Part shown: positions 1-1,238 of the stretch, in pieces
Layout of the letters: each line of letters starts with the position of its first letter
Position numbering within the stretch: the first letter of the stretch is position 1
NCBI RefSeq assembly: GCF_003334355.1
Contig: NZ_QOWP01000092.1
Origin: Escherichia coli
GTDB taxonomy: Bacteria > Pseudomonadota > Gammaproteobacteria > Enterobacterales > Enterobacteriaceae
DNA: 1,238 nt
Strand: one strand, 5' to 3'
Notes under the pieces: model-generated
Database searches by the model: none
What the model was told of the DNA's origin: nothing
Seen by the model: only the letters and a program-made list of their open reading frames with translations
Position numbers and translations under genes: made by a program

Positions 1-824
1 GCACTATGCGGATGCCATTCGTTATAATGCTCGAACGCCTCTGCAAGGTTCTTTGCTGCCGTTAACCCGTCTGGTTTAGGCATGATACTGATGTAGTCAC
101 GCTTTATCGTTTTCACGAAGCTCTCTGCTATGCCGTTACTCTCCGGACTCCGCACCGCCGTGTTCTTCGGTTCAAGCCCCAATATCCGGGCAAACTGCCG
201 TGTTTCATTAGCCCGGTAGCATGAACCATTATCCGTCAGCCACTCTACTGGAGACGCCGGAAGCTCGTTGCCGAAGCGGCGTTCCACCGCTCCCAGCATG
301 ACGTCCTGTACTGTTTCACTGTCGAAGCCGCCCGTAGTGACTGCCCAGTGCAGTGCCTCACGGTCACAGCAGTCCAGCGCGAACGTGACTCGCAGTTTTT
401 CTCCGTTATCACAGCGGAACTCGAACCCGTCAGAGCACCATCGTTGATTGCTTTCTTTCACGGCCACTTTGCCAGTATGTGCCCGTTTCGATGGCGGTAC
501 AGCGGTTTTTCGCTCAAGCAACAGCGCATTCTGGCGCATGATCCGGTAAACACGTTTGGCATTGATCGCAGGCATACCATCAAGTTCGGCCTGTCTGCGA
601 AGCAGCGCCCATACCCGACGATAACCATACGTGGGCAGCTCTCCGATAACATGGTGTATACGGAGAAGCACATCCGTATCATCTGAGTGACGGCTGCGGC
701 GACCATCTTTCCAGTCATCGGTTCGTCTGAGAATTACGTGCAACTGCGCACGCGACACCCGGAGACAACGGCTGACTAAACTTACTCCCCATCCCCGGGC
801 AATAAGGGCGCGTGCGCTATCCAC
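1..824 (-). CDS. insD: IS2 OrfB / InsD, DDE transposase catalytic domain; 3' end truncated by the window edge (about 274 of about 301 codons visible)
   Basis: Hand translation of the - strand in the frame whose codons occupy (3k..3k+2) gives an uninterrupted reading from GTG (824-822) to position 1: [43 protein letters not shown]...WCSDGFEF...WLTDNGSCY...[16 protein letters not shown]...[13 protein letters not shown]. The DDE triad is present: D at 429-431, D at 231-233, E at 123-125, with a conserved K seven residues after the E. The ORF is absent from the supplied track because it has no stop inside the window. Confidence 0.85.
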
Positions 825-1147
825 TTTTTTGCACGCCCGTATTCAACGGCTTCTTTAAGGAGTTCATTTTCCATCGTTTTTTTGCCGAGCAGGCGCTGGA
901 GTTCTTTAATCTGCTTCATGGCAGCAGCAAGTTCAGAGGCAGGAACGACCTGCTCTCCTGCGGCCACAGCAGTAAGACTTCCCTCCTGGTATTGCTTGCG
1001 CCAGAGAAATAACTGGCTGGCTGCCACACCGTGTTGCCGGGCAACAAGGGAGACCGTCATTCCCGGTTCAAAGCTCTGCTGAACAATAGCGATCTTTTCC
1101 TGTGTAGTACGCCGTCTGCGTTTCTCCGGTCCTAAGACATCAATCAT
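1..1147 (-). CDS. InsCD transframe fusion transposase, produced by programmed -1 ribosomal frameshifting at 824-830 (partial, C-terminus outside window)
   Basis: InsD is in the -1 frame relative to InsC, and the two overlap over 782-824. The slippery heptamer A AAA AAG lies exactly at the start of the overlap. In IS3-family elements the active transposase is the OrfAB fusion. Confidence 0.7.
782..1147 (-). CDS. insC: IS2 OrfA / InsC, small DNA-binding transposition regulator (121 aa), N-terminal half of the InsCD fusion transposase
   Basis: The - strand ORF in the track (782-1192) contains [54 protein letters not shown]...LLPGDGE, recognised as IS2 InsC, with a helix-turn-helix-like segment followed by a heptad-rich coiled-coil-like region. 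The true start is taken as the ATG at 1147-1145, preceded by GGAGAG (revcomp of 1151-1156) about 5 nt upstream. The upstream GTG at 1192 used by the track lies inside the terminal repeat/palindrome and adds 15 hydrophobic residues. The TAA stop is at 782-784. Confidence 0.88.
824..830 (-). other. Programmed -1 ribosomal frameshift slippery heptamer A AAA AAG (A6G)
   Basis: The + strand reads CTTTTTT at 824-830, i.e. AAAAAAG on the coding strand. In the InsC frame it reads GCA AAA AAG TGG (A K K W); in the -1 frame it reads AAA AAA GTG GAT (K K V D), which continues as InsD. It sits 13 codons before the InsC stop. Confidence 0.75.
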
Positions 1148-1150
1148 CTG

Positions 1151-1156
1151 CTCTCC
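1151..1156 (-). promoter_or_regulatory. Ribosome-binding site (GGAGAG) for insC
   Basis: Revcomp of 1151-1156 is GGAGAG; about 5 nt separate the GGAG core from the ATG at 1147-1145. Confidence 0.55.
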
Positions 1157-1186
1157 AATGACTAGTCTAAAAACTAGTATTAAGAC

Positions 1187-1206
1187 TATCACTTATTTAA
1201 GTGATA
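1187..1206. promoter_or_regulatory. Perfect 9-bp-arm palindrome TATCACTTA-TT-TAAGTGATA at the inner edge of IRL; candidate operator/transposase-binding or promoter-overlapping site
   Basis: Read directly from the sequence: 1187-1195 TATCACTTA, spacer TT, 1198-1206 TAAGTGATA (exact reverse complement). It lies about 40-60 bp upstream of the insC start, in the region where IS3-family elements carry their native promoter and OrfA binding site. Confidence 0.4.
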
Positions 1207-1238
1207 TTGGTTGTCTGGAGATTCAGGGGGCCAGTCTA
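1198..1238 (-). repeat. Left terminal inverted repeat (IRL) of IS2, about 41 bp, outer end at position 1238
   Basis: Revcomp of 1198-1238 is TAGACTGGCCCCCTGAATCTCCAGACAACCAATATCACTTA. The terminal dinucleotide is 5'-TA. The exact inner boundary is approximate. Confidence 0.7.

Follow-up and report, generated by a model that had tools for sequence, protein, structure and literature searches.

IS2 is among the earliest insertion sequences described. In common with IS911, IS3 and IS150, it possesses two overlapping open reading frames, joined through a programmed -1 frameshift into an OrfAB transposase with a DDE (rve) core; these elements further share an N-terminus of the HTH and leucine-zipper-like type, a figure-of-eight and a minicircle as transposition intermediates, and a junction promoter (PMC3299598, PMC3219604). 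IS2 departs from the other three in several features: (i) its ends are asymmetric, the right inverted repeat (IRR) acting as the only donor and the left inverted repeat (IRL) as the only recipient; (ii) the spacer of the minicircle must be 1 bp; (iii) the target duplication is 5 bp (PMC3299598). The IRR of IS2 comprises 41 bp with a CA-3' terminus and is the exclusive donor in step I of the process, and the IRL comprises 42 bp with a TA-3' terminus and has a recipient-only role; the copy-out/paste-in route via the figure-of-eight and the minicircle is known from experiments (PMC3299598).

The DNA analysed here, referred to as the window, is a stretch of 1,238 nt. It most likely represents nt 1-1238 of IS2, carried on the minus strand, in a common isoform of this IS3-family element that lies about 4% away from the K-12 sequence; the probability of this reading is put at roughly 0.93. 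As a reference, IS2A of E. coli K-12 MG1655 was used (NC_000913.3, 381260-382590; 1331 nt, annotated as 'insertion sequence:IS2A' with insC1/insD1). The reverse complement of the window aligned to IS2A without gaps over IS2 nt 1-1238, with 52 substitutions, 0 indels and 95.8% identity. The sequence-only reading of the same DNA had recognised an IS2 element in reverse orientation, and both points were borne out, the first by this gap-free alignment together with IS2-specific NCBIfam models scoring above their cut-offs, the second by the alignment via the minus strand, in which IS2 nt 1 falls at window position 1238. It had also expected a near-identical alignment to the IS2 reference; this part has to be given up, as the observed divergence is that of a distinct, common isoform. 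Position 1238 is the outer base of the IRL, the plus strand of the window ending there in ...CCAGTCTA-3', and no host DNA is present beyond the IRL side. Outside the window lie the final 93 nt of the element (nt 1239-1331 of 1331), with 27 InsD codons, the stop codon and the IRR. All long reading frames are found on its minus strand.

The reverse complement was compared by megablast with 5,426 complete E. coli genomes and matched 7641 records in 4883 of them; the features under the matches are annotated as 'IS3 family transposase' or 'IS3-like element IS2 family transposase'. Given this number of matching records, one of them identical across all 1238 nt, the resemblance to IS2 is homology rather than chance. 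The best match reached at least 99% identity in 1248 E. coli records and 95-99% in 5703. Among the best 5000 plasmid records, at least 927 are matched at 99% identity or above, and the top plasmid matches include plasmids of E. coli, Salmonella enterica and Shigella flexneri. With IS2 matches in nine-tenths of the complete genomes (4883/5426), such an element is of little importance in itself. Neither the element nor its mechanism is new, IS2 being already known, and the earlier statement that the element holds nothing novel is upheld.

A single record of the E. coli collection, the strain PSS-12 chromosome (NZ_AP027697.1), is listed at 100%. Its copy (locus positions 3001-4331) is 1331 nt long and flanked by the 5-bp duplication ATGAA; the annotation gives its transposase (WP_165467183.1, 409 aa) as intact, with a programmed frameshift and no pseudogene flag. 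The insertion splits ymgC, the distal gene of the ycgZ-ymgA-ariR-ymgC operon, beside bluF/bluR. For the comparisons described below, nine sequences were aligned: the window, the PSS-12 copy, K-12 IS2A and six sampled non-K-12 copies, which were listed at 99.8-99.9% identity to the window and come from different chromosomal and plasmid sites. At window position 780 (IS2 nt 459) a T is found in the window and in the PSS-12 copy only, and a C in the other seven of the nine sequences, K-12 included. This T, situated just 3' of the InsC stop codon and synonymous in InsD, is a possible lineage marker of the window.

The left end of the element is preserved in full. The IRL (IS2 nt 1-42; window 1197-1238, minus strand), which is the recipient end, is identical to the K-12 IRL and has TA-3' as its terminal dinucleotide on the plus strand, the window ending in ...GTCTA-3'. 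The identity extends over the IRL and the 5' UTR (IS2 nt 1-87), which are the same in the window as in K-12 IS2A and the seven other copies. A repeat search revealed a perfect 9-bp inverted repeat, TATCACTTA/TAAGTGATA, at IS2 nt 33-52 (window 1187-1206, minus strand). In IS2, the OrfA (InsC) repressor binds residues 39-48, beside the weak extended -10 promoter P_IRL (PMC3299598), and this reported binding sequence forms the centre of the inverted repeat. The window therefore possesses the features expected of IS2 at this end, namely a 42-bp IRL, a TA-3' terminus and a palindrome over the OrfA binding sequence, and in contrast to IS911, IS3 and IS150 its IRL is of the IS2 type. A generic scan for sigma-70 promoters and terminators detected no canonical promoter or terminator in the window. 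This result fits the weak extended -10 type of P_IRL, yet it is uninformative in that respect, because the scan does not model promoters of this type.

The first gene, orfA (insC), is encoded at IS2 nt 92-457 (window 782-1147, minus strand) and yields a protein of 121 aa followed by a stop codon, in accordance with the complete InsC noted previously. It starts with an ATG at IS2 nt 92 and is preceded by a GGAG Shine-Dalgarno sequence at IS2 nt 83-86 (window 1153-1156, minus strand). The InsC protein is 100% identical to K-12 InsC, all 20 nucleotide changes being synonymous. It scores 239.1 bits with the NCBIfam model NF006928 'IS2 repressor TnpA' (cut-off 229), and Pfam HTH_Tnp_1 matches its residues 8-87. 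On these matches, InsC is predicted to be an HTH DNA-binding repressor and at the same time to provide the transposase with its N-terminal part. A GTG-extended, 136-aa version of orfA (window 782-1192) was considered and set aside as a mechanical reading frame; it is unannotated in both K-12 and PSS-12.

Within orfA, the slippery heptamer A AAA AAG (A6G) is located at IS2 nt 409-415 (window 824-830, minus strand) in the correct orfA phase. The role of A6G in the -1 frameshifting of IS2 has been described (PMC3299598). Its motif and phase identify it as the predicted programmed -1 frameshift site fusing orfA to orfB. The surrounding segment, IS2 nt 407-458, is invariant in the nine aligned copies, window included, and the RefSeq annotation of identical copies carries the term 'programmed frameshift'. 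A candidate frameshift-stimulating stem-loop was found by repeat search and RNA folding at window 746-817 (minus strand). Its arms are 9 bp long and perfectly complementary (GCGCACGCG/CGCGUGCGC, window 746-754 and 809-817), and it begins 6 nt 3' of the slippery heptamer, which is a canonical spacing. The fold has an energy of -37.9 kcal/mol with a z-score of -1.84, 13 of 200 shuffled sequences being equally stable; its stability does not differ significantly from that of the shuffled set. Because the stem is unchanged across all aligned copies, it offers no covariation evidence. Judged by its position and pairing, this stem-loop downstream of A6G may stimulate the frameshift. An Rfam scan of both strands at E-values up to 1 returned no curated RNA family, frameshift elements included.

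The second gene, orfB (insD), is represented by the first 274 of its 301 codons (IS2 nt 415-1238; window 1-824, minus strand). Counted from the GTG start at IS2 nt 415 (window 822-824), the frame runs open throughout to window base 1. The count of 274 open InsD codons given before is thus exact, and neither the translation nor the alignment to the reference protein revealed a stop codon or a frameshift. Compared to K-12, InsD differs at 10 of 274 residues (96.4% identity, 264/274), the changes being M39K, T47S, P107T, R119K, C137R, R143K, N168D, D187E, S190A and M214I. The fusion transposase OrfAB, which would be produced via the -1 frameshift, occupies window 1-1147 (minus strand); 382 of its 409 residues are visible and the C-terminal 27 lie outside. 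For the model searches, this fusion was assembled in silico from orfA and orfB at A6G.

Despite the truncated protein, the score with the NCBIfam model NF006918 'IS2 transposase TnpB' is 639 bits, above the curated cut-off of 597, and that with the IS3-family equivalog NF033516 transpos_IS3 is 264.2 bits (cut-off 160). Pfam HTH_21, rve and rve_3 also match the InsD/OrfAB of the window. The catalytic codons (minus strand; OrfAB numbering of PMC3219604) are placed at window 429-431 for D240, 231-233 for D306 and 123-125 for E342, and the complete D240/D306/E342 triad is present. Consequently, the window shows the architecture of the IS3 family, with OrfA (HTH) and OrfB (DDE/rve) carrying the catalytic triad. 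At all 18 positions inside the window for which a published random-mutagenesis screen (PMC3219604) recovered substitutions, the wild-type residue is kept. The catalytic-site region of IS2 spans OrfAB residues 236-398, and E391K was recovered in the same random-mutagenesis screen (PMC3219604); residue 391 falls in the part beyond the window (residues 383-409). The earlier view that the element is no decayed relic therefore stands, as the visible frames, the A6G site and the catalytic triad are all intact. On the plus strand, an open reading frame of 112 aa at window 348-686, antisense to insD, was rejected as a chance frame; it is annotated in neither K-12 nor PSS-12.

The extent of the window raises the question of whether it corresponds to one physical copy. 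It could be a collapsed repeat contig of a short-read assembly, in which several IS2 copies of one genome were merged into a consensus, and this is a real possibility, if on balance not the expected one. The source sequence is just 1238 nt long, one edge lies exactly at the IS2 terminus with no host base attached, and the other edge stops one base short of nt 1239, which is G in the K-12 type and A in the isoform. Taken together, the short source, the edge at the terminus and the edge in front of a polymorphic base suggest that the edges are an assembly break in a repeat and not a biological boundary. The number of IS2 places per IS2-carrying E. coli genome, with a median of 4 and up to 41, points the same way. 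On the other hand, the complete genome of PSS-12 contains a real single copy with exactly the sequence of the window, including the T at position 780, which argues for one copy and against a consensus. Were the contig a collapsed repeat, 'this copy' and its insertion context would be undefined and no context would be recoverable. A copy of IS2 matters only via the genes that it disrupts or activates and the IS-mediated rearrangements to which it gives rise; such effects would show in flanking DNA, of which the window has none.

The reading of the window as nt 1-1238 of an IS2 isoform applies to either case, and the state of the missing right end can be approached through the closest relatives. 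The PSS-12 copy and the six sampled copies are all full length (7/7, 1331 nt), with an intact 3' end and IRR, and their right ends all read ...GGGGCAAATCCA. Perfect 5-bp target duplications flank five of these seven copies (ATGAA, GCACT, ACTAA, GCAAG and ATGCG), compared to about 0.007 expected by chance; this demonstrates repeated and recent transposition of the isoform. In two of the seven the duplication is absent (loci NZ_CP080080.1, 580271-582308, and NZ_CP077671.1, 4354-6391); the NZ_CP080080.1 copy has a truncated fimbrial usher gene on one side and a truncated yhaV on the other. Such copies, lying without a duplication between unrelated sequences, fit with recombination between IS2 copies or with deletion mediated by them.

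Every needed part of the element that lies within the window is intact, and the copy is probably active. The latter is judged by analogy, as the IRR and OrfAB residues 383-409 are located outside, and it is the full-length, near-identical copies that bear the duplications. The sequence-only reading, which had called the element probably transposition-competent, is accordingly upheld for the intact visible frames, and competence itself is not readable from the window. The copy might alternatively be an immobile, one-ended remnant, if its right end is truncated, if the IRR is mutated or interrupted, or if the final 27 codons of InsD carry a lesion. The window does end 93 nt before the element itself, no end other than the IRR can act as donor, and minicircles do not arise from IS2 elements that have two left ends (PMC3299598); moreover, E. 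coli records include partial IS2 copies, e.g. nt 1-534, 32-1238 and 429-1238. Nevertheless, such a remnant is unlikely, given that all visible parts are intact and under purifying selection, that the seven near-identical copies without exception retain the 3' end and the IRR, and that, of the 7641 records with a match, 5452 contain a copy spanning 80% of the window or more.

If the copy of the window is a functional IS2, it would follow the course established for this element (PMC3299598, PMC3219604), which we infer here by homology. The weak extended -10 promoter just inside the IRL would transcribe orfA and orfB. Normal translation would give InsC/OrfA, the HTH protein expected to bind the palindrome at IS2 nt 33-52 and to repress the promoter, and a rare -1 slip of the ribosome at A AAA AAG would give the 409-aa OrfAB DDE transposase. 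In step I, OrfAB would cleave the IRR, the sole donor, and join it beside the IRL, the sole recipient, to form the figure-of-eight. This intermediate would be converted to a minicircle, where the abutted ends would form the strong promoter Pjunc. In step II, both ends would attack the target and the circle would insert, generating the 5-bp target duplication.

The comparison with K-12 IS2A places the window within the known variation of IS2. The two share the IRL and 5' UTR (nt 1-87), the InsC protein, the A6G segment and the D240/D306/E342 triad; the full PSS-12 copy, identical to the window over its length, has the 1331 nt of IS2A as well, and both types are associated with a 5-bp target duplication (ATTAC for K-12 IS2A), an IRL ending in TA-3' and an IRR ending in CA-3'. 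They differ at 52 of 1238 nt and at 10 of 274 InsD residues in the window, and the full PSS-12 copy adds C290S in InsD and, within the IRR, the substitution of G for A at nt 1305. The complete OrfAB of PSS-12 is 97.3% identical to that of K-12, with 11 amino-acid differences. In ISfinder practice, isoforms share about 95% nucleotide and about 98% amino-acid identity. The nucleotide identity of 95.8% lies above the first value, and of the amino-acid identities to K-12, that of InsC (100%) lies above the second, those of InsD (96.4%) and OrfAB (97.3%) slightly below it. By nucleotide identity, the window can be classified as an IS2 isoform.

The pattern of substitutions is that of genes kept in function. 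Compared to K-12, orfA has a dN of 0 and a dS of 0.31 (20 synonymous and 0 non-synonymous changes), and orfB has a dN of 0.018 and a dS of 0.12. The low dN relative to dS in both genes indicates purifying selection since the split, with both lineages kept functional. The dS in orfA is 2.5 times that in orfB, and the substitutions are spread along the element; the contrast between the two genes may stem from past mosaicism or recombination among IS2 variants.

It is very unlikely that the isoform differs from K-12 IS2 in behaviour, e.g. in transposition rate, target choice or repression. The points behind this idea are the 11 OrfAB substitutions and the one in the IRR, a separate PGAP name, and the frequent presence of the isoform on conjugative plasmids in E. 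coli, Salmonella and Shigella; if its behaviour did differ, it might deserve separate tracking. That the element is a separately named relative within the IS3 family, to which the IS2 label applies only approximately, is highly improbable: RefSeq/PGAP does name the isoform copies only 'IS3 family transposase', a generic term, and the K-12 type specifically 'IS3-like element IS2 family transposase', and the OrfAB and InsD identities to K-12 do fall slightly below the 98% isoform figure, but the nucleotide identity of 95.8% with no indels, the PSS-12 copy length of 1331 nt, the identical IRL and InsC, the IS2-specific NCBIfam models exceeding their curated cut-offs and the records at 96.2-98.5% identity, which bridge both types in a continuum, all argue against it. 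A practical consequence of the naming is that annotation text searches keyed on 'IS2' would miss this common isoform under its generic RefSeq label.

In addition to the copies described, several E. coli plasmids carry a fragment that is about 99% identical, spans IS2 nt 1-531 or 1-534 only and is annotated as 'transposase'. This fragment looks like a recurrent truncated IS2 relic.
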